Below are positions 35,280-47,030 of a stretch of 64,000 nt of DNA, piece by piece (within the stretch, counting starts at the first letter, position 1; each line of letters begins with the position of its first letter). The stretch is taken from the NCBI GenBank assembly GCA_964518675.1, contig CAZFGQ010000004.1, positions 3,631 through 67,630 on the forward strand. Direction: 5' to 3'. A model generated the notes under the pieces. The model saw nothing but the letters and a program-made list of their open reading frames with translations. It had not been told where the DNA came from and made no database searches. The translations under genes and the position numbers were made by a program. Source of the stretch: an uncultured Spirochaetota bacterium (GTDB taxonomy: Bacteria > Spirochaetota > B62-G9 > CAZFGQ01).

Positions 35280-36608
35280 TTGATAATGGCGGAAAGAGGA
35301 AATATTGCACTTAATATTTTCAGGATACCTGAGTTAAGAAGAAGGGTATTTTTTACACTTCTGATGCTTGTGATTTTTAGAATAGGGGCATATATTCCGG
35401 TTCCTGGAATTGATGTTGTGGCTCTTGAACGACTTTTCCAGCAGACGGGAGGCGGATTGCTCGGTTTTCTCGATTTATTTGCGGGAGGAGCTTTGCGGCG
35501 TTTTACAATATTTTCTCTCGGCATCATGCCGTACATAACCTCCTCGATTATTCTTCAGCTTTTAACTGTTGTAATTCCTGCTCTTGAAAGGTTGTCTAAA
35601 GAGGGTGAAGTAGGTAGAAAGAAAATCCAACAGCTTACAAGAGTTGTTACAGTTGGAATATGTGCGGTTCAGTCATATGCTTTAACTGTTTTTATGAAAT
35701 CCAACCCGGGAGTTGTTGTAAATCCAGGTATTGGTTTTACAATAACGGCAATTGTGGGAATAACAGCTGGTACTATATTTTTGATGTGGATAGGTGAGCA
35801 GATAACTGAAAGAGGGATTGGTAATGGGATTTCCCTGCTTATATTTATTGGAATAGTTGCGAGAATTCCCGTTGCCTTTAAGCAGGTATACGATCATTTG
35901 AAGATCGGTGATCTTAATCCAGTTGTACTGATACTCTCGCTTGGTATATTTGTTGTAATAGTTGCATTTGTCATCCTTGAACAGCAGGGGCAGAGAAGAA
36001 TCCCGATCCAGCATGCTAAGAAGATTGTTGGCAGAAAGGTTTACTCAGCTCAGGCTACCTATATTCCATTGAAGATAAACCCATCTGGGGTAATTCCAAT
36101 AATTTTTGCATCTTCTGTTTTACTTTTTCCTGCTCAGATTGCACAATCGTTCGGTGCAAGGATACCTGCTTTTGATAAGCTGGCAGCACTTCTGGCTCCT
36201 GGTAGGGTACTTTACCTGGTGCTTTATGCTCTTTTGATTATCTTTTTTACATATTTTTATACCCAGATCCAGTTGAATCCAATTGATATTGCTGATAATC
36301 TTAAAAAGGTTGGAGGTTATATACCTGGTATAAGGCCTGGAGCCAATACTGCAGCGTATCTACAAAAAGTTTTGAACAGGATTGTTCTTCCGGGTTCAAT
36401 ATTTCTTGCAATGATAGCATTGATTCCTACTATCATACAGCGCTGGTTGAATCTCCCATCTGCAATGGCGTATCTTATGGGAGGAACATCACTGCTGATT
36501 ATGGTTGGAGTAGACCTTGATACGATGAAGCAGATAGAGTCTCATCTTTTGATGAGGCATTACGATGGTTTTATGAAAAGGGGAAAAATAAGGGGTAGGA
36601 ACCTATAG
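35280..36608 (+). CDS. secY: Preprotein translocase subunit SecY
   Basis: 442 aa polytopic membrane protein (GIMPYITSSIILQLL, GEQITERGIGNGISLLIF). Confidence 0.96.
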   Translation: MIMAERGNIALNIFRIPELRRRVFFTLLMLVIFRIGAYIPVPGIDVVALERLFQQTGGGLLGFLDLFAGGALRRFTIFSLGIMPYITSSIILQLLTVVIPALERLSKEGEVGRKKIQQLTRVVTVGICAVQSYALTVFMKSNPGVVVNPGIGFTITAIVGITAGTIFLMWIGEQITERGIGNGISLLIFIGIVARIPVAFKQVYDHLKIGDLNPVVLILSLGIFVVIVAFVILEQQGQRRIPIQHAKKIVGRKVYSAQATYIPLKINPSGVIPIIFASSVLLFPAQIAQSFGARIPAFDKLAALLAPGRVLYLVLYALLIIFFTYFYTQIQLNPIDIADNLKKVGGYIPGIRPGANTAAYLQKVLNRIVLPGSIFLAMIALIPTIIQRWLNLPSAMAYLMGGTSLLIMVGVDLDTMKQIESHLLMRHYDGFMKRGKIRGRNL

Positions 36609-36901
36609 CGGAAAGTTTTATAGAAGAGTTGTTGAACGTTGACAGCGTGTCAGCAAATGAGTAATTAAGTATAATTTTCCTATAACTTAAATGGCTTATT
36701 TGACTAATATCGATTAAAAGGTTATCTTTAGACAGGAAAATTTCTATCTTCTTCTAAGAAGTGTGGGAGTTTTAAGCTTTGCTGTAAGCAACTTTAAGTT
36801 AAATATTGAGTGTTTTATTAGTGATGTTAATTGTTAACTTAAAACCGGTGTGATAAAGCTATAATCTTTTAAATTAAATCTGGACGGGTGTTAAGCGAGC
36901 T

Positions 36902-37120
36902 ATGCCAAAGGAAGATGCCATTGTGGTAAATGGAATAGTTAAAGAACCCCTGCCAAACGCAATGTTCAGAGTTGAACTGGAAAACGGGCATATAGTACTT
37001 GCCCACATCTCAGGAAAAATGAGGATGCATAATATAAGAATTCTTCCGGGAGATAAAGTTAGCGTTGAGCTTTCTCCTTACGATTTGACGAGGGGAAGAA
37101 TAACATACAGGTATAAATAA
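36902..37120 (+). CDS. infA: Translation initiation factor IF-1
   Basis: 72 aa. [72 protein letters not shown]. Confidence 0.96.
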
Positions 37121-38806: not shown

Positions 38807-39850
38807 ATGGCACATAAGAATCTCCTAAAAGGGATGAAGAGACCAAAGTCTCTGGTTATAGAGCATGATAAAACAGATAACACTTTTGGCAGGATTATTG
38901 CGGCCCCCCTTGAGAGGGGGTATGGGGTTACACTTGGGAACTCGTTGAGAAGGGTTTTACTATCAGCCCTTCAGGGTTATGCCATTGTTGCGATTCGAAT
39001 AGAAGCGTTTGATCCGGATGAGGGGAGCAGAAGGTTAATCACTAATGAGTTTGATAACATACCTGGAATGGTTGAGGATACGATCGATTTTATCATTAAC
39101 CTTAAGAATGTCCGTTTAAAGCTGGTTGATGAGTCGGAAAGCAGAACAATTACCATCAATAAAAAAGGACCTGGAGAATTTAAGGCGGGTGATCTAGAAG
39201 TTGATTCAAATATTAAGGTTTTTAACCCGGATTTAAGGCTTGCAACTCTCAGCGAAGGATGTGATTTTACAATAGATTTGCAGATAAACAGAGGACGGGG
39301 ATACCTGCCAGCTGAGGAAAATATTGAAAACATCGAAACAATAGGTACTATTCCTATAGATGCTATATTTACTCCAATTAAAAAGTGCAATTTTAAAGTT
39401 GAAAAAACAAGAGTTGGGCAGAAAGGCGACTATGATAAACTTATTCTTGAAGTGTGGACTGATGGGAGCATTTTGCCTGAAGATGCTGTAGCTGATGCTG
39501 CAAAGATTCTAAAGGATTATCTTTTGCATTTTATCAATTTCAATGAGGAATTTGAAAGCGAAGAAGAAACTGTTGACGAAGAACTGGAGAAACTAAAAGC
39601 TATCCTGGCAACACCCGTGGATGAACTTGAACTTTCTGTAAGATCGAGTAACTGTTTGAGAAATATAAATGTGAAGACGATAGGTGATCTAGCCATGTTG
39701 ACCGAGGAAGAAATATCCAAAACTAAAAACTTTGGTAAAAAGTCTCTCCAGGAAATTAAAGACAAACTTGCTGAGTATGGATTGAGTTTAGGAATGAAAG
39801 AATATATACAGCAAAGACTCGCTGGAAAACAGGTGGAGAAACAGAAATGA
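38807..39850 (+). CDS. rpoA: DNA-directed RNA polymerase subunit alpha
   Basis: 347 aa. [26 protein letters not shown]; [26 protein letters not shown]. Confidence 0.95.
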
Positions 39851-40212
39851 GACATCTGAAAAAGGGAAGAAAACTTAACAGAACTGCAGCTCATAGAAGA
39901 GCAATGTTTGCAAATATGGCTGCATCACTATTCAAACATGAGAGAATTCAAACCACTCTGGCAAAGGCAAAAGAGCTTCGAAGCTTCTGTGAAAAACTAA
40001 TAACCCGTGCTAAGGAAAATACCCTTCATAATAAAAGAATTGTACTTGCCAGAATCAGGGATATGGACGCAGTAGTGAAGCTCTTTGATGAGATAGCTCC
40101 AAGGTATAAGGATGTCCCTGGTGGATACACGAGGATAATAAGGGTAAAACAGAGACACGGAGATGGAGCCAAAATGGCGATCATAGAGCTTGTTCAAAAG
40201 GAAAGTACATAA
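39847..40212 (+). CDS. rplQ: 50S ribosomal protein L17
   Basis: [45 protein letters not shown]... Confidence 0.95.
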
Positions 40213-40402
40213 TTTGTTATTCCATCAATAAGATGTTAGATATTTGGTAAATATAGAAACCTGTTTCCTGCACTTTTAAGAAAAAAATCATGAGAACCCA
40301 CAGGTAATCCTAAAATTTGGGAGCTTTGATTTTTTTATCAACATCAAAATACTTTTAGATGTTTGATGCATCGGGGTTTGTAATTTTAAAAACTTAAATT
40401 TA

Positions 40403-41125
40403 ATGGCTGATAATAATTCAAATAGAAAAGGCAGCTATTTTTTCCAGTTATCACCTTTTCCCCTCTATATTAACACTCTTCATTTTACAGTCCTTGCACT
40501 ATTATCACGATATTTTTTAACACTTTTGCTTCAGTGTATTTTTATACTGATTCTATATATTTTGTTCTCGAAACGTATGAGGCCAGTGAAATTGAAGACT
40601 CTTTTTTCTCTGATTCCCATTCTTTTTTTTATAATTTCTGTAAATTCATTCAGAGGTGGTGGAGAAATAATTTTTGAGATATGGCATTTTAGTGTAATAA
40701 AACAGGGGATTTACAGGGGTTTGTATTTTTCAGGTGTGGTAGTACTGTTATATCTTATGAGCAGGCTGTTGGTTATAATGTTTGACGAAAATGAAATTGT
40801 CTCTTCTGTTATTTTTTTTAGAAATAGAAAAAAGAACGGCAAGTCTGGCGGGATGAGGCTTTTATTAATAATCATGTATGTGATCAAAATATTGAAGTTT
40901 GCATATGAAGAGATGAAGGTGTTTTTCAAAAAAAATGAAGGCCCTGTTAAAAAAAGATTTCTTGAGTTCTTTGTAAATGTTTTTTTCAGGGCTGAATCGG
41001 AGTACAAACATTTAGAGGATATTTGTTTTGTGAGTATAAAGTCGAGGATTGGTGATCCTGTATTAATTCTTGTCCAGGTAGCTATAACGATTTCTGTCAT
41101 GAAATTGAGATTGTGGGGTGTATAG
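40403..41125 (+). CDS. Hypothetical polytopic membrane protein (possibly distantly ECF-transporter T-like); stop abuts the next gene's start
   Basis: 240 aa, about five predicted hydrophobic helices and a K/R-rich C-terminal region. No motif I can assign. Follows rplQ where Firmicutes carry ecfA-ecfA-ecfT, but no ATPase is present here. Confidence 0.45.
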   Translation: MADNNSNRKGSYFFQLSPFPLYINTLHFTVLALLSRYFLTLLLQCIFILILYILFSKRMRPVKLKTLFSLIPILFFIISVNSFRGGGEIIFEIWHFSVIKQGIYRGLYFSGVVVLLYLMSRLLVIMFDENEIVSSVIFFRNRKKNGKSGGMRLLLIIMYVIKILKFAYEEMKVFFKKNEGPVKKRFLEFFVNVFFRAESEYKHLEDICFVSIKSRIGDPVLILVQVAITISVMKLRLWGV

Positions 41126-42751
41126 GTGCTTGAAAAAGAATATCCAAGACTGGTACGGAAAGGACTCGAGGAGGGACTTAGATTCTGGGGGCTTGATGTT
41201 GATACCGATAAGGATACCCTTATATCGTTCATCAGTAATATAAATAACATACTAAAAGGTATATCAAAGCTGGAGGAGGGAGAAAATAGGGTACTAACAT
41301 TCCTTTTAATGAAGAATGGAAAGGCAGAGAAAGATGATTTGAGAAGCATTATCCAGAGTGAAAAAGAGCTTGAGAAGGCTATCACCGGGCTTGAGAAAAA
41401 GTTTTTTATTTATGTCAGGAAAGATAGAAGCACTCTTACCGACAGGCATGATAAACTATACGTTTACCCTGTTATACTTTCGAAACTTACAGAGATTCCC
41501 GTTATTGAAGAAGATAAATTCGGACCTTTTCTGGACAAATATTATGAGCCCCTGTATAAATCATGTAATGTTCCCCGGGCTGTTATTGAAAGCCTGAGAT
41601 ATGGAGGGATCATTTTTGGAGGTGATGTTATTGCAGGGTCCAGTGACTTGAAAAAAACTCCTGACATTTCCGGGTTTTCAACCTATCTCTTGTACTTGCG
41701 CGGTTGTTTTTATCCATTTTACCTTCCGCCAATAACAGAACTGGAATCAGAGCAGGATATCAGAGAGGGAAGCTTCCAAAGAGGTTTCATATTTTCTGAT
41801 TATATAATCAAAGTAATATTGATATGTGATATTTTTCATCACTTCCCGAAAATTAGAAAAGCCGGGATAAAGAAAAGGATGGGGTCTCTGGGATTTAGCA
41901 TTTCTGATGGTGAATATGCTAGTATTCTGGATGACCTGAATATGTCTGGCGTTATTGATGTTTCAGAGAGAAGGGTTAATGTCAGTACGATGTTTCTTTA
42001 TGGAAACTATAGTGAGAAAATAAGGTACTTTGAATCAATACTTGGTGAAGACGAGAGAAACGTTATTGAAGAAGTCAGAAAGAGATCACCTTTAAGGGTT
42101 GATATTCTTACGTCGATTCTTGTTCGAAATTTAAGATTAAAGGAAAGGCGTTTTTCACTAACTGATGAGATTGCCGCTAAGATATACAAAAATTATTCAG
42201 ACAAACTTGAGAGGATTATTACTCTTGGTTTTATCGAACGGGATTTCAGCAGAACTTTTCTCAGAGCTTCTGAGTTGGAGTGCAGGATTCCGGAGAAAAA
42301 ATTTTTACAGATAAATGCAGACGGGGAAATTTTTGTTTATACGGAACTTATGAACGGATATGTATACTACTTACTATGTGGATTCGCCCGTCTTATATCT
42401 GTAGAGAAGATTCTAAAATTTAAACTTGATAAGGATTCGGTTATCAGAGGAGTAGTTTTATTTGCGTCAGCTGATGAGTTTATAGATATGATTAAAAATT
42501 GTTCAATTGGGAAACCAGAACCTTATGTTGTAGAAACTATTAAGGCATGGGCATGTGAAGGGTCGAAGATTAAAATTGGTCAAAGGTATGTTCTAAGAAT
42601 CGATGAGAGATTAAAACTGAAAATTATGGGGAGTGACAAACTCAGGGGAATGGTTGAACTTGTTTCTGGTGATTACATAGTTTTTAAGGAAGATACCGAT
42701 GTGGAACGATTAAAGGGTTACCTGCGTGATGAAAACATCTTTATCGATTGA
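41126..42751 (+). CDS. Hypothetical cytoplasmic protein, 541 aa, no recognisable domain
   Basis: GTG start immediately after the stop of the preceding ORF. Long uninterrupted ORF with no Walker or other motif I can name. Confidence 0.5.
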   Translation: MLEKEYPRLVRKGLEEGLRFWGLDVDTDKDTLISFISNINNILKGISKLEEGENRVLTFLLMKNGKAEKDDLRSIIQSEKELEKAITGLEKKFFIYVRKDRSTLTDRHDKLYVYPVILSKLTEIPVIEEDKFGPFLDKYYEPLYKSCNVPRAVIESLRYGGIIFGGDVIAGSSDLKKTPDISGFSTYLLYLRGCFYPFYLPPITELESEQDIREGSFQRGFIFSDYIIKVILICDIFHHFPKIRKAGIKKRMGSLGFSISDGEYASILDDLNMSGVIDVSERRVNVSTMFLYGNYSEKIRYFESILGEDERNVIEEVRKRSPLRVDILTSILVRNLRLKERRFSLTDEIAAKIYKNYSDKLERIITLGFIERDFSRTFLRASELECRIPEKKFLQINADGEIFVYTELMNGYVYYLLCGFARLISVEKILKFKLDKDSVIRGVVLFASADEFIDMIKNCSIGKPEPYVVETIKAWACEGSKIKIGQRYVLRIDERLKLKIMGSDKLRGMVELVSGDYIVFKEDTDVERLKGYLRDENIFID

Positions 42752-42770
42752 AAGGTACGATAGTTATTGG

Positions 42771-43775
42771 TTACTTCCAGAATCCTTCCGTGTATAGGGA
42801 TTTTCTCTCTCCCCCTTCGTCGTAAATTATGAGTCCTTCTATATCATTTGTCTTTAGAAAATCATACCCCTTTTTGCTTCCCATTACAAAAACAGCTGTT
42901 GCTATTGCATCACCAAATGCGGTATCTTCAGTCAGGACTGTAACACTCTTTATATCACTATCAGGGTACCCGGTTTTTGGATTAAAGAGATGAGTATATC
43001 TTTTGCCATCTTTTATGAAGTATCTCTCATAATTTCCTGAAGTTACTATTGCAATATTGCTTTTCTCGAGTATCCCGGCAAACTTGTTTTTGGAATCTGG
43101 ATCCTGAATGGCTATTCTCCACTTCTGCCCGTTTTTATTATGACCAGCAACATACATATCCCCACCGGCATTGATGAGAAAGTTTTTGAAACCTTCCTCG
43201 AACAGTTTGTCTCTCAAGATATCCACAATCTTCCCCTTTGCAATGCCACTGAGGTCTATCCTGATATTTTCCGGTTTATTGATTATATGGTTGGTTATCT
43301 TTAGTTTCTGGTATCCTGTGTTTTTCAGGATTTTTCTTATTTCCTCTGGATCTGGAAGGTGCGGTGATTCAGTTTCAAAGCCCCATAGTTCAGTAAGTGG
43401 GAGAAGCGTTGGGTCGAAATACCCATCGGTGATATTTGCTATTCTTATTGATTCAACGATTAAATCAAAAAGTTGTTCTGATCCTTTCCTTTCCAGTGTT
43501 GTTGATTTATTGAATTTATGCAGGTTTCCGTTAGATGGCCGGTAATCAAATATTTTTTCGTATTTACTGAGTAATCCAAATAAGGATTCCAGGGTTTTTT
43601 CAGCTTTTTTTGTTTCAGTTTTGGGGACAACGATATTTATCTGAACGTAGGTGCCAAGACCGAAATCTGTTTTTTCAATAGAGACATTTTTAGGTTTACA
43701 ACCAAAGAGTATTATGAGAGTTAAAATAACTGTACATGGTAGGGTGATCAGGGATTTCCATTTCGAAAAAACCAT
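42771..43775 (-). CDS. apbE: FAD:protein FMN transferase (ApbE family) lipoprotein
   Basis: Lipobox (LILFGC). ApbE signatures: LSGIAKGKIVD, FLINAGGDMY, AIVTSGNYERYF, HLFNPKTGYP. Confidence 0.88.
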   Translation of the reverse strand: MVFSKWKSLITLPCTVILTLIILFGCKPKNVSIEKTDFGLGTYVQINIVVPKTETKKAEKTLESLFGLLSKYEKIFDYRPSNGNLHKFNKSTTLERKGSEQLFDLIVESIRIANITDGYFDPTLLPLTELWGFETESPHLPDPEEIRKILKNTGYQKLKITNHIINKPENIRIDLSGIAKGKIVDILRDKLFEEGFKNFLINAGGDMYVAGHNKNGQKWRIAIQDPDSKNKFAGILEKSNIAIVTSGNYERYFIKDGKRYTHLFNPKTGYPDSDIKSVTVLTEDTAFGDAIATAVFVMGSKKGYDFLKTNDIEGLIIYDEGGERKSLYTEGFWK

Positions 43776-44524
43776 TTATCTATCAGTTCCTCCAGCTTTC
43801 CATTTTTTTTGAGTTTTTCAATTCCTGAGTTTATATGTCTTGATACCTGAAGTTTGCCTTTTTTAAATGCCATTACATACTCTGTGGTTGTTAGTGGCTT
43901 GGGATATATCCACAGGAGATTTTCATATTCGGGATTGTAATATGCCATTTGCGCTGCTTCTATCAGATCGGTACAGAATCCATCTATATTACCTTTTATT
44001 ATATCCTCAAATCCATTTTTAGATGACTTGTATTCTATTATCTTTATGCCTTTAATATTTTCAAAGTTTGCTTTAGCCCTTGAACCTTTTAGTAATCCAA
44101 TAGCTTTTCCTGATAATTGTTCAAATGAGGTTATCCCTCTATTTTCCTCCGAGAGTACAAGTACCTCATTTATTGTGAGGTAAGGTATTGAAATCTGGAT
44201 ATTTCGATTTTCGGATACTTCTCTGTCATTTGACTTTAATCCACCTATGGCTATGTCATAGGTTTCATCTATAAGTCCGTAGATGAGATTTTCTCTAAGC
44301 ACAGGAATAATTTTAATATTGAGTTTTTCAATACTGGCGATCTCTTTTATCAGCTCTATTTCAAACCCTACCAACTTTTGTTTTTCGTTGATCATTGAAA
44401 GAGGTGGGGTATCAGGTGCAGAGGCTACTATGTACTTTTCCTTTTTTTTGAATAATGTGCATGTAGATGCGAGTAATACTATAACTAATATCAGCAGAAT
44501 AATTAGAGATAATTTTTTCATCAT
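43748..44524 (-). CDS. Family-3 (amino-acid type) ABC transporter substrate-binding lipoprotein
   Basis: Lipoprotein signal (LLASTC). PBP type-2 fold pattern (GFEIELIKEIA..., ...GFCTDLIEAAQMAYYNPE...). Confidence 0.75.
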   Translation of the reverse strand: MMKKLSLIILLILVIVLLASTCTLFKKKEKYIVASAPDTPPLSMINEKQKLVGFEIELIKEIASIEKLNIKIIPVLRENLIYGLIDETYDIAIGGLKSNDREVSENRNIQISIPYLTINEVLVLSEENRGITSFEQLSGKAIGLLKGSRAKANFENIKGIKIIEYKSSKNGFEDIIKGNIDGFCTDLIEAAQMAYYNPEYENLLWIYPKPLTTTEYVMAFKKGKLQVSRHINSGIEKLKKNGKLEELIDKWFFRNGNP

Positions 44525-44561
44525 TTGTTTTACCTGAGCTGATTAGATAAGTTATACTATT

Positions 44562-45485
44562 CTAAAGTGCATTTAAATCGGATCTCGTATAATAGTGTTT
44601 GAGCAATATGCCTTCCCCAGTAATATACTTCTTTTTTTCCCCATTGATCAAAATACTGACGGTTTTGACTTCATCAAATTCGAAGCACGTGAGAAGTATC
44701 TGTTTAAGTTGAATCTCGATTGCTTTTCTTCCAAGATAGTTATTCTCAAAATTTTCATTAAAATTAAGTGTGAGATGATTATTTTTTAGGGAAGCTGAGA
44801 TTAATTTAGTCCCCTGAGGAATAAATGTTTTAAGCCCTCTTTTTCTTTCTGCTTCTCCAGGACCTTTCAATAGTAGCTGTATGGTTCTTGTGATTGGTGA
44901 ATCTATATATTTGACAGTTTTTTTAATACCGGCAAGAGTCATCTCTCCCGTGGTAGGGTCGACTGTGACATAGTAGATGGTGGAGGTTCGAGTGTTAACT
45001 GCTTTGGATTCTGCTTTTGTTTTTCTCGTGGTTGTTTTTTTACTTTCTACCTTTTTGGCAGTGTCTAACCTTTCTGGTGTTTTTTGTGTTTCCAAACGCC
45101 TTTCTGAACTGGCTGAGGCTGTTTCTTTTTCCTCATTGGTCTTTTCTTCTTTTTTTATCTCCTCTTTTTGTTCAATTTTCTTTTCTTCGATTATTTGTTT
45201 CTCAGGAATTACTTTCTCAGATTTTTCTTCTTTTGTTTCCGGTTTGATTAACGTAATTTCTTCTTTTTTATCTTTTTCCTGAACTTCGTCCTCACTCTTT
45301 GTTTCTTCTTTGACGATGACTTTCAGCTTTTGCTCACCTTTTATAACTGAGACTAATGAATTGATTGTCTCTTTAAACGAACCTTTACCTCTATAGAGGA
45401 ATATTACTGCTATTATAAGCAGTATAAATATCCAGAAGAGACAACCTGTTCTTCTTATTTTTCTGGATTTGCCTCGCCTTGCCAT
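44562..45485 (-). CDS. GerMN-domain protein with N-terminal TM anchor and a K/E-rich low-complexity linker
   Basis: N-terminal TM (CLFWIFILLIIAVIFL). A 150-aa K/E/T-rich linker. The C-terminal region (IDSPITRTIQLLLKGPGEAERKRGLKTFIPQGTKLISASLKNNHLTLNFNENFE...VSILINGE) matches GerMN (sporulation/germination) domains. Confidence 0.65.
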   Translation of the reverse strand: MARRGKSRKIRRTGCLFWIFILLIIAVIFLYRGKGSFKETINSLVSVIKGEQKLKVIVKEETKSEDEVQEKDKKEEITLIKPETKEEKSEKVIPEKQIIEEKKIEQKEEIKKEEKTNEEKETASASSERRLETQKTPERLDTAKKVESKKTTTRKTKAESKAVNTRTSTIYYVTVDPTTGEMTLAGIKKTVKYIDSPITRTIQLLLKGPGEAERKRGLKTFIPQGTKLISASLKNNHLTLNFNENFENNYLGRKAIEIQLKQILLTCFEFDEVKTVSILINGEKKKYITGEGILLKHYYTRSDLNAL

Positions 45486-45565
45486 CTAAAGCAATATAGG
45501 TTTATCAATATCATTTGTCAAGCCAATACGTTTTAGGTTAAAATATTGTATAGCAGGAGTTTTGG

Positions 45566-45991
45566 ATGAAGCGGATAAAGTTATTGGTAGTTTTGATTCA
45601 GGTATTGTTCCTCCTTTCATGTTCAAAGGAGCCGGAAAAACTTATATTAAGTATAAATGGTCGTTACCTTGAAGTGGAGGTCGCACGTACTGAGAAGGAG
45701 AGAGAGAAGGGCCTGATGAATCGTAAGTCTCTTGGCTGGAATGAAGGGATGCTCTTTATTTTTGATGATGATCAATACCTCTCTTTCTGGATGAAAAATA
45801 CTAGCATTCCGCTTTCGATCGCTTTTCTGGATAAAAATGGTATTGTGACCGATATATACAGTATGAAGCCTTTTTCGCTAGAACCTGTTGTATCTTCGCG
45901 TAAATGTAGATATGCTATTGAGGTCAATGATGGTTTTTTTGAAGAATGTGGACTAAAAATTGGAGACAGAATTGAGATTAACATCCAGTAG
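45566..45991 (+). CDS. DUF192-family lipoprotein
   Basis: Lipobox (LFLLSC). DUF192 pattern: EVARTEKEREKGLMNRKSLGWNEGMLFIFDDDQYLSFWMKNTSIPLSIAFLDKNGIV...YAIEVNDG. Confidence 0.75.
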   Translation: MKRIKLLVVLIQVLFLLSCSKEPEKLILSINGRYLEVEVARTEKEREKGLMNRKSLGWNEGMLFIFDDDQYLSFWMKNTSIPLSIAFLDKNGIVTDIYSMKPFSLEPVVSSRKCRYAIEVNDGFFEECGLKIGDRIEINIQ

Positions 45992-47030
45992 GTACTTTGG
46001 GATATTAATTAAATTATTTTTCTTTCTCTTTATACTTTACAGTCCCGCCAGGATGCTACTGGCGGAGGATAAAATACTGATTTACTATTTTAAGAATATC
46101 ACTGGGGATGATAGATACAACGATCTTGAATATAAAATCTCTGTCTGTCTGTATAGAGAGCTCAGGGCAAGGATTGGAAAAAAAGGGGTTTATCTCATTA
46201 GACCCGATACTTTTGAAAAATATTCAATTGGCAGGGATGAATATTTTAATGAGAATTTCCTCATAAACCTGTTTAGCAGGGAGAAAATTGATAAGGTTTT
46301 ATTCGGTTATTTTTTTCTACTTGACGGTAGGATTGAAATGAGAGGTAGGCTCCTCTCTGTAGATAGTGGGGTTATAATTGATATAACGGAGGCGCAGAAA
46401 GAACTGTACGAGGCTATTAGAAAAGTTGAGGGGATCGTGAAGGAGTTACAGGGTAGATGTGAACTTGATAAAAAAACAAAATATTTTTCGCCTGGTAAGA
46501 AAGCCAGAAAAGTGGCCATAAAAGAGGAAAATGCGAAAACAGGTTTGCTGGTTTTGTCAGGTGTTATTTTCCCAGTTTTTGAGTGGGGGAAATATTATGA
46601 TCCGGGAATTTTTGGGAGTTTTAATTTTTACTACACGCCGAAACCAATGACATTCCCACTTGGTTTTGGGACCCAATTTTTCTACTACTATTTGGAAAAA
46701 TCGGAGGATTTGTACCTTGGCTCAAAATTAAATGGTTTGGGCGTGCAACCAATGTTGACATACATCAAGGAAAGAAGTGGCTTTTTCAGTGGTTATGGTT
46801 TTCTTTTTGGTGTTGGCGGAGGGCTGAGTATGTTATTTGTTAACGAAGCAGATTATCTCTCAATTGATCCCTCAGTTAGTGCAAGCTTTTTTCTAATAAT
46901 TTCACCTTTTAAGGGACTTAAGATGACATTAAATGCGGGTGCCTATTCAGTAATATATAAATCTTATCCTTTTACAACCTATACTTTATCTATTGGAGTT
47001 AAATCAGGAACTTTGAAGGTAAAGAAATAA
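45960..47030 (+). CDS. Hypothetical secreted / outer-membrane-like protein: N-terminal FxNxTG (CsgG/FlgO/TolB-N-like) domain plus an aromatic-rich beta-strand C-terminal half
   Basis: Signal-like N-terminus. YYFKNITGDDRYNDLEYKISVCLYRELRA resembles the FxNxTG motif of CsgG-like and TolB-N-like lipoproteins. The C-terminal half alternates aromatic residues (FGTQFFYYYLEK, GFFSGYGFLFGVGGG). Overlaps DUF192 by 32 nt. Confidence 0.55.
   Translation: METELRLTSSRYFGILIKLFFFLFILYSPARMLLAEDKILIYYFKNITGDDRYNDLEYKISVCLYRELRARIGKKGVYLIRPDTFEKYSIGRDEYFNENFLINLFSREKIDKVLFGYFFLLDGRIEMRGRLLSVDSGVIIDITEAQKELYEAIRKVEGIVKELQGRCELDKKTKYFSPGKKARKVAIKEENAKTGLLVLSGVIFPVFEWGKYYDPGIFGSFNFYYTPKPMTFPLGFGTQFFYYYLEKSEDLYLGSKLNGLGVQPMLTYIKERSGFFSGYGFLFGVGGGLSMLFVNEADYLSIDPSVSASFFLIISPFKGLKMTLNAGAYSVIYKSYPFTTYTLSIGVKSGTLKVKK

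Follow-up and report, generated by a model that had tools for sequence, protein, structure and literature searches.

The two genes downstream of rplQ

The DNA considered here is a stretch of 64,000 nucleotides (nt) from contig CAZFGQ010000004.1 of an uncultured Spirochaetota bacterium, hereafter called the window. It contains an alpha operon of ribosomal protein and RNA polymerase genes in which rplQ, the final canonical gene, is followed on the same strand by two further open reading frames (ORFs), ORF1 and ORF2. According to the ORF list, ORF1 (40403-41125, plus strand) has an ATG start and encodes 240 amino acids, while ORF2 (41126-42751, plus strand) has a GTG start and encodes 541 amino acids. 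An earlier note, made from the letters alone, had placed the boundary between them at 41125/41126, which is exact, and had considered neither protein assignable. The latter view has to be given up, because structure and profile searches place ORF1 among the EcfT/CbiQ proteins, the T units of energy-coupling factor (ECF) transporters, and ORF2 among p52/Tfb2-like proteins, in both cases at the level of the superfamily. Overall, each of the two proteins is a divergent variant of a superfamily already known, and their pairing is undescribed. The features of the locus are as follows.

40403-41125, plus strand: ORF1, a divergent membrane protein of the EcfT/CbiQ fold without either Ala-Arg-Gly signature, assigned from the CbiQ profile, hhalign, an AlphaFold2 (AF2) model and Foldseek.
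40643-40720, plus strand: ORF1 residues 81-106, an invariant region covering a hairpin and the start of transmembrane helix 4 (TM4), delimited by invariant columns, the hairpin of the model and a charge count.
40787-41017, plus strand: ORF1 residues 129-205, the cytoplasmic coupling-helix region (equivalents of coupling helices CH1-CH3), with hhalign gaps at both Ala-Arg-Gly segments.
41126-42751, plus strand: ORF2, a soluble p52/Tfb2-like protein with a winged-helix array and a C-terminal clutch domain; its GTG abuts the ORF1 stop.
41204-42274, plus strand: ORF2 residues ~27-383, about four winged-helix-like modules.
42311-42637, plus strand: ORF2 residues 396-504, the clutch domain (Pfam Helicase_C_3, PF13625; the fold shared by the p52 clutch and the N-terminal domain of XPB).
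39847-40212, plus strand: rplQ, encoding ribosomal protein L17, the final canonical alpha-operon gene; 59-89% identical to L17 of related loci, with an orthologue in L001 that carries Pfam Ribosomal_L17.
40213-40402, plus strand: an AT-rich spacer of 190 nt between rplQ and ORF1, poorly conserved relative to L001.
42771-43775, minus strand: apbE, encoding flavin adenine dinucleotide (FAD):protein flavin mononucleotide (FMN) transferase (Pfam ApbE, 3e-76), a convergent neighbour given for context.

The junction between the two genes reads ...GGGGTGTATAG followed directly by GTG, with the TAG stop codon of ORF1 at 41123-41125 and the start codon of ORF2 at 41126. Use of the GTG is backed by a 53%-identical orthologue, P0002, which begins at the same residue (MMIEKEYPRL vs MLEKEYPRL). 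Orthologues with an identical gene layout show 61% and 53% identity. The spacer between rplQ and ORF1 ranges from -4 to ~200 nt across the relatives, and a terminator scan of the spacer in the window found no terminator-like site. An Rfam search of 40100-42900 gave no match at E<=1, and an RNA element in the spacer was rejected on this ground and because of the poor conservation. The base composition of the ORF1-ORF2 region is continuous with that of its flanks.

Families of the two proteins

ORF1 is a full-length, divergent homologue of EcfT/CbiQ. The protein is polytopic, with five hydrophobic helices in addition to amphipathic cytoplasmic helices, and the pattern of its lysine and arginine residues obeys the positive-inside rule. 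Seven of 12 members of the ORF1 family match the Pfam CbiQ model (PF02361; best 1.2e-6). Additionally, a precomputed PF02361 match is recorded for four database members of the family, and two members were named EcfT by JGI. A profile of the family matches the EcfT chain 5d3m_D in the PDB, in register across the N-terminal half. The strongest profile evidence comes from the hhalign comparison of the ORF1 family with five canonical T units taken from annotated records, namely EcfT of B. subtilis, E. faecalis, L. fermentum and Monoglobus and FmnA of Listeria (95.5%, E 1.4e-8, 231 columns). The AF2 model of ORF1 (pLDDT 72) has the helix order of EcfT, comprising TM1-3, a hairpin, a long TM4, three cytoplasmic coupling helices and a C-terminal transmembrane helix. 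When this model was compared with the PDB by Foldseek, the best 12 matches were all EcfT/CbiQ chains, with E values from 1e-5 to 0.18 (seven below 2e-4), and these alignments covered ~250 columns with template-modelling (TM) scores of 0.48-0.66. Thus, in full-length fold, helix order and profile-profile homology ORF1 resembles the EcfT/CbiQ proteins, including FmnA.

The position of the gene is also that of ecfT. The earlier note had pointed out that in Firmicutes ecfA-ecfA'-ecfT-truA occupies this place, and the annotated loci bear this out, with rplQ-ecfA-ecfA'-ecfT-truA in B. subtilis and ecfA-ecfA'-ecfT-truA in three other Firmicutes. Because the ORF1 family is thus the same gene family that follows rplQ in Firmicutes, the simplest account is that ORF1 arose from an ancestral ecfT at this locus as a derivative specific to its lineage. 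ORF1 differs from the Firmicutes EcfT in that it belongs to a diderm phylum and is followed by a p52-like gene instead of truA. In Listeria monocytogenes, fmnA lies just upstream of rpsJ (L021:3802-7413), and the B. subtilis ecfA-ecfA'-ecfT genes lie just after rplQ. In Firmicutes, ECF-T genes can thus stand at either end of the ribosomal-protein supercluster.

Two arginine signatures serve to define a T unit in ECF transporters. These Ala-Arg-Gly/Ser signatures, at the ends of the coupling helices, are described as more conserved than any other feature of the T units and as the contact sites for the A units (PMC3246461). In contrast, both are deleted in ORF1, which is ~23-25 residues shorter than the canonical proteins. 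Specifically, the hhalign alignment places gaps of eight residues in ORF1 opposite MARGVDFT and AVAMEARG, the two Ala-Arg-Gly segments of the canonical T units. The motif [AS]RG occurs in the C-terminal half of none of 19 distinct ORF1 family sequences, whereas of the five canonical T units four contain it twice and one contains it once; a few ORF1 family members carry a non-conserved xRG close to the end of CH2. Also unlike EcfT/CbiQ, ORF1 has no ecfA/ecfA' or S-component gene nearby, as no ECF A or S component was found among the neighbouring ORFs scanned. A six-frame scan of the whole window yielded neither a Walker A motif (GxxGxGK[ST]) nor LSGGQ, in line with the earlier note, which had seen no Walker A in either protein.

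In addition to these losses, the ORF1 family possesses an invariant N..RGGGE...QG..RG motif that sets it apart from EcfT/CbiQ. The invariant residues N81, R84, G85, G87, E88, Q101, G102, R105 and G106 sit on the TM3-TM4 beta-hairpin, whose strands in the model are E89-93 and E96-99, and on the start of TM4. The positive-inside charge count and the topology suggest that this hairpin would lie on the periplasmic face. In total, 18 residues are invariant in the family at an overall identity of ~30%.

ORF2 is a bacterial protein built like p52, a subunit of TFIIH. As the earlier note had proposed, it is the soluble member of a membrane/soluble pair, with no transmembrane segment (maximum KD19 1.54). 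However, the same note had called it domain-less, and this proved wrong. The AF2 model is confident (pLDDT 87, pTM 0.76) and contains N-terminal winged-helix domains followed by a clutch (HubA) domain, and the top 20 Foldseek matches in the PDB are all p52/Tfb2 chains of TFIIH structures (E 1e-11 to 9e-5). Most of these alignments span ~550 columns, at ~10% sequence identity and a global TM score of ~0.2, which is low because the domain orientations differ in a flexible, multi-domain protein. The Helicase_C_3 model is matched by 11 of 19 ORF2 family members (best 3.2e-12) and clearly by the distant relatives P0019-P0032, and a profile of the ORF2 family matches the clutch region of p52 chains locally (E 0.002). 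The most conserved motif of the family, Y96-x-R98-K99-x-R101-x-x-L104-x-D106-x-x-D109-K110-x-Y112, lies in the first winged helix, in its basic wing. A scan of NCBIfam gave only sub-threshold winged helix-turn-helix matches.

In TFIIH, the clutch of p52 pairs through its beta-sheet with the homologous N-terminal domain of XPB, forming a pseudo-symmetric dimer (PMC6422496). The C-terminal domain of p52 binds p8. A 2012 paper reported XPB in most spirochaetes and stated that p52 homologues had not been found in bacteria (PMC3353954). ORF2 differs from p52/Tfb2 (GTF2H4) in its ~10% identity and in the Pfam Tfb2 model, which matches none of the 19 family members at E<=0.01. It is also bacterial, stands in a ribosomal-operon context and has no gene for a p8, p34 or XPB partner nearby; a p8-like gene is absent from the window and from the clade loci. 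With the bacterial stand-alone Helicase_C_3 (PF13625) proteins, to which its family connects in an exhaustive profile search, ORF2 shares the C-terminal domain and a length of 540-690 amino acids. Some of those proteins are encoded beside XPB/ERCC3-type helicases, whereas in the ORF2 subfamily the linkage is with rplQ and a gene of the EcfT kind.

One such case bears directly on the comparison with TFIIH. At L041, a gene for an ERCC3/RAD25/XPB-type helicase (L041:1-900, the C-terminal half, cut by the contig end) is directly followed by a gene for a distant ORF2 relative of 686 amino acids with a C-terminal Helicase_C_3 domain (L041:1007-3067). This locus is a bacterial pair of XPB and p52-like genes. 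A further distant subgroup of 572-578 amino acids, with clear Helicase_C_3 matches, is found at L018, L019, L020 and L048. In the three of these loci that have an identifiable downstream gene, this gene is aroB (3-dehydroquinate synthase), whose start overlaps the 3' end of the gene for the ORF2 relative. This is a different conserved linkage of the ORF2 superfamily.

Both proteins are rare. A word-indexed single-sequence search of 5.8 billion proteins returned two matches for ORF2 and three for ORF1, and the exhaustive profile search of 1.84 billion representatives returned just 28 ORF2 relatives, counted as cluster representatives. The ORF2 subfamily is therefore small compared with Helicase_C_3 at large, and most of its members fall under the Pfam threshold. 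The metagenome scan was run with an alignment of eight sequences, and a scan of genome contigs with N-terminal patterns only of the ORF2 alignment found nothing. In the literature open to search, neither a signature-less T homologue, nor a full-length p52-like protein of bacteria, nor their pairing in the alpha operon is described.

Conservation and neighbourhood of the pair

The window RpoA is 73-81% identical to RpoA of uncultured Spirochaetota metagenome-assembled genomes from sediments, vents and springs, and the related loci were gathered by a scan of genome contigs for RpoA. ORF1 is present after rplQ in every related locus that reaches beyond rplQ, and in some relatives it abuts or overlaps rplQ (0 nt in L009, -4 nt in L005 and, for the candidate homologue of L046, a TGATG overlap). 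Within the clade, ORF2 comes directly after ORF1 in 24 loci, namely the window, L001, L007, L008, L013, L017, the P0006 contig, L026-L033, L035-L038 and L044/L045. This count includes L026, L028 and L029, in which the window and L008 were sampled again in nearly identical form. Of the 17 junctions read, 13 have a spacing of -4 to +2 nt between the ORF1 stop and the ORF2 start, even at ~25% protein identity.

Both ORFs are real genes under purifying selection. For L013 and L033, an unsaturated pair, the ratio of nonsynonymous to synonymous substitution rates (dN/dS) is 0.29 for ORF1, 0.24 for ORF2, 0.16 for apbE and 0.11 for rplQ. Among the genes tested, no evolutionary distances correlate better than those of ORF1 and ORF2 (r 0.85; partial correlation 0.70). 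The test is weak, being small and confounded by phylogeny, and the correlation is suggestive but does not count as evidence.

A second lineage, L046 (also L047), with 56% RpoA identity, has the same order of rplQ, a membrane protein gene and a p52-like gene. At L046:2669-5648, the rplQ stop overlaps (TGATG) the gene for a membrane protein of 226 amino acids, which is similar to ORF1 in position and size and whose hydropathy profile superimposes on that of ORF1. An ORF2 relative lies 101 nt after it, followed by different genes (TPR, TP0873_N domain) and no apbE. The pair is thus probably kept, and linked to rplQ, in this lineage as well.

On the far side of the pair, apbE is the convergent neighbour in most clade loci. 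In the window, the encoded ApbE has an N-terminal hydrophobic leader ending in LFGC and is likely a lipoprotein. There is a 28-nt overlap between apbE and the beginning of the upstream SBP_bac_3 solute-binding protein gene (43748-44524; both within 42771-44524, minus strand), and the two are probably co-transcribed. In relatives, nadE (NAD synthase) stands between the SBP_bac_3 gene and the gene for a Germane-domain protein (L017:9682-10479). The window has only a gap of 37 nt at this point (44524-44562), so nadE has been lost or has moved in this lineage. The Germane-domain protein itself (44562-45485, minus strand) has a long, lysine/glutamate-rich linker of low complexity, which accounts for the strong AT skew at ~44750-45500. 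At L011 (12309-14714, minus strand) and L012 (12288-14690, minus strand), a gene for a penicillin amidase of 801 amino acids, inserted on the opposite strand, separates the ORF1 homologue from apbE and occupies the place that ORF2 has in other genomes.

The L17 reading frames of some relatives have long C-terminal extensions (reading frames of 319 amino acids at L007:2747-3706, 190 at L005:11041-11613 and 181 at L046:2669-3214, as compared to 121 in the window), and the extension in L007 appears as lysine/arginine-rich repeats in an overlapping frame. Upstream, at 35280-37120, secY is followed by infA with neither adk nor map between them, and the gap of 293 nt (36609-36901) contains no ORF of at least 60 amino acids. 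Downstream, a protein of 356 amino acids without a Pfam match (45960-47030, plus strand) is encoded upstream of a PEGA/TPR YfiO-like gene. It occupies the same position in relatives, where it has 338-347 amino acids, and is another uncharacterised gene conserved in the clade.

Possible roles of the pair

The explanation that best accounts for these observations as a whole is that an EcfT-derived ORF1 and a p52-like adaptor ORF2 form a two-gene tail of the alpha operon. This is somewhat probable, and a physical or functional link between the two proteins is inferred. ORF1 would then serve as an ATPase-independent membrane scaffold that is not part of a canonical ECF motor. ORF2, which is translationally coupled to ORF1, may act as a cytoplasmic adaptor that dimerises through its clutch, the partner being either a second copy of ORF2 or an XPB-type helicase that bears Helicase_C_3 and whose gene lies elsewhere, and its winged helices may bind nucleic acid or partner proteins. 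The favoured version, that the remodelled cytoplasmic helices of ORF1 provide a membrane platform for ORF2, is tentative. A bolder version is quite unlikely: that ORF1, as a scaffold without ABC ATPases, anchors ORF2, whose clutch pairing ties a DNA translocase of the XPB type to the inner membrane. If it were true, the tail of the rpoA operon would encode a previously unknown membrane-tethered machine for handling nucleic acids and a prokaryotic antecedent of the XPB-p52 module of TFIIH.

Several observations weigh against a functional pair or against the assignments on which it is built. The scores of the window proteins themselves are below the Pfam gathering thresholds, both for ORF1 with CbiQ (E 8e-4 and 19.5 bits, threshold 25 bits) and for ORF2 with Helicase_C_3 (22.2 bits, threshold 34.2 bits), and the quality of the ORF1 model is no more than moderate. 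ORF2 is absent, while ORF1 is kept, in at least nine relatives (L003, L005, L006, L009-L012, L014 and L015). These are interleaved with ORF2-positive genomes in a tree of RpoA and L17, which indicates that ORF2 has been lost repeatedly. The conserved core of ORF1 is identical in ORF2-positive and ORF2-negative genomes, so ORF1 does not need ORF2, and a search for ORF1 residues specific to ORF2-positive genomes found none worth noting. In addition, the whole region is syntenic across the clade, and the adjacency of the two genes may be just inherited. Homology of the L046 membrane protein to ORF1/EcfT is not statistically established (E 0.054 and 0.0054). Lastly, no XPB gene is present within the window or any clade locus, and ORF2 relatives that overlap aroB also occur away from rplQ, without an ORF1-like neighbour. 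ORF1 is the core gene of the clade, and ORF2 is an accessory partner, lost more than once. For the earlier note, which had proposed an undescribed housekeeping-linked module, this means that the linkage of the pair to rplQ stands, in 24 loci, but not an obligate pairing. Its overall interpretation is likewise supported in part: the genes are real, co-oriented and conserved, with no terminator-like site before them, but they do not belong to unassignable families. Because the pairing is not obligate and the families can be assigned, a housekeeping-linked module is still advanced here only as a hypothesis.

In the main rival explanation, ORF1 and ORF2 are independent passengers on the tail of the ribosomal/RNA polymerase super-operon, transcribed together without interacting, with ORF1 as a T-like membrane protein with a role of its own and ORF2 as a DNA- or helicase-associated p52-like factor. 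The loss of ORF2 from interleaved relatives that retain ORF1, the unchanged conserved residues of ORF1, and the ties of ORF2 relatives to aroB or XPB in other lineages all speak for it. As the gene order of the whole region is conserved, the adjacency carries little information, and ORF2 relatives form short overlaps with aroB too. However, wherever ORF2 is present in the clade it directly follows ORF1, with tight junctions that persist at ~25% identity, and the same order recurs in the lineage with 56% RpoA identity among different flanking genes. The distance correlation, such as it is, also points away from independence. This explanation is a real possibility, although it is doubted on balance. 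A further rival is that ORF1 is a decaying remnant of ecfT, left after the loss of ecfA/ecfA', and ORF2 a recent insertion, neither with a maintained function. The missing signature motifs and 23 residues relative to canonical T units, the dN/dS of both genes above that of their neighbours and the patchy presence of ORF2 fit such decay. They are outweighed by an ORF1 that is intact, with its invariant residues, wherever a clade locus reaches beyond rplQ, by dN/dS values of 0.16-0.29, far below 1, and by an ORF2 that is full length and folds confidently. A pseudogene remnant was rejected because of the purifying selection. A mobile or defence insertion was rejected as well, as there are no mobile-element or defence signatures, the composition matches the flanks and PADLOC defence models gave no match to either protein at E<=0.1. 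Decay is thus disfavoured and very improbable.

The remaining alternative assigns ORF1 to flavin export. In Listeria, the ECF-T paralogue FmnA works with EetB and EcfA/A' to export FAD for the ApbE-like FmnB, and genes of ECF exporters often colocalise with apbE (PMC9973259). An FmnA-type T subunit is needed for flavinylation that depends on ApbE/FmnB. ORF1 could by analogy be an FmnA-like T subunit of a FAD exporter that serves the adjacent periplasmic ApbE, with S and A subunits encoded elsewhere and ORF2 irrelevant. Like fmnA beside fmnB in Listeria (L021), ORF1 has an apbE gene in its neighbourhood. In most of the clade loci reaching beyond ORF1, this gene is its convergent neighbour, whether or not ORF2 is present. 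The hydrophobic leader of the window ApbE, ending in LFGC, and the apparently periplasm-facing invariant residues of ORF1 would also fit. Against this, both ATPase-docking signatures are deleted, which makes canonical ECF energisation unlikely. Moreover, the window ORFs scanned include no EetB (PF07456), RibU-like or ABC ATPase gene, and no ABC motif appears in six frames. The two genes are convergent and not co-transcribed, and their adjacency is broken in L010, L011 and L012 and absent from the L046 lineage. Flavin export is accordingly judged unlikely.

If the reading of ORF1 is right, a conserved T homologue under selection, with neither signatures nor nearby ATPases, would mean that the EcfT fold can be used outside ATP-driven vitamin transport. 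The p52-like architecture of the spirochaetal ORF2, together with its XPB-adjacent relative, bears on the prokaryotic origin of the XPB-p52 clutch of TFIIH and makes ORF2-like proteins a candidate partner for bacterial XPB.

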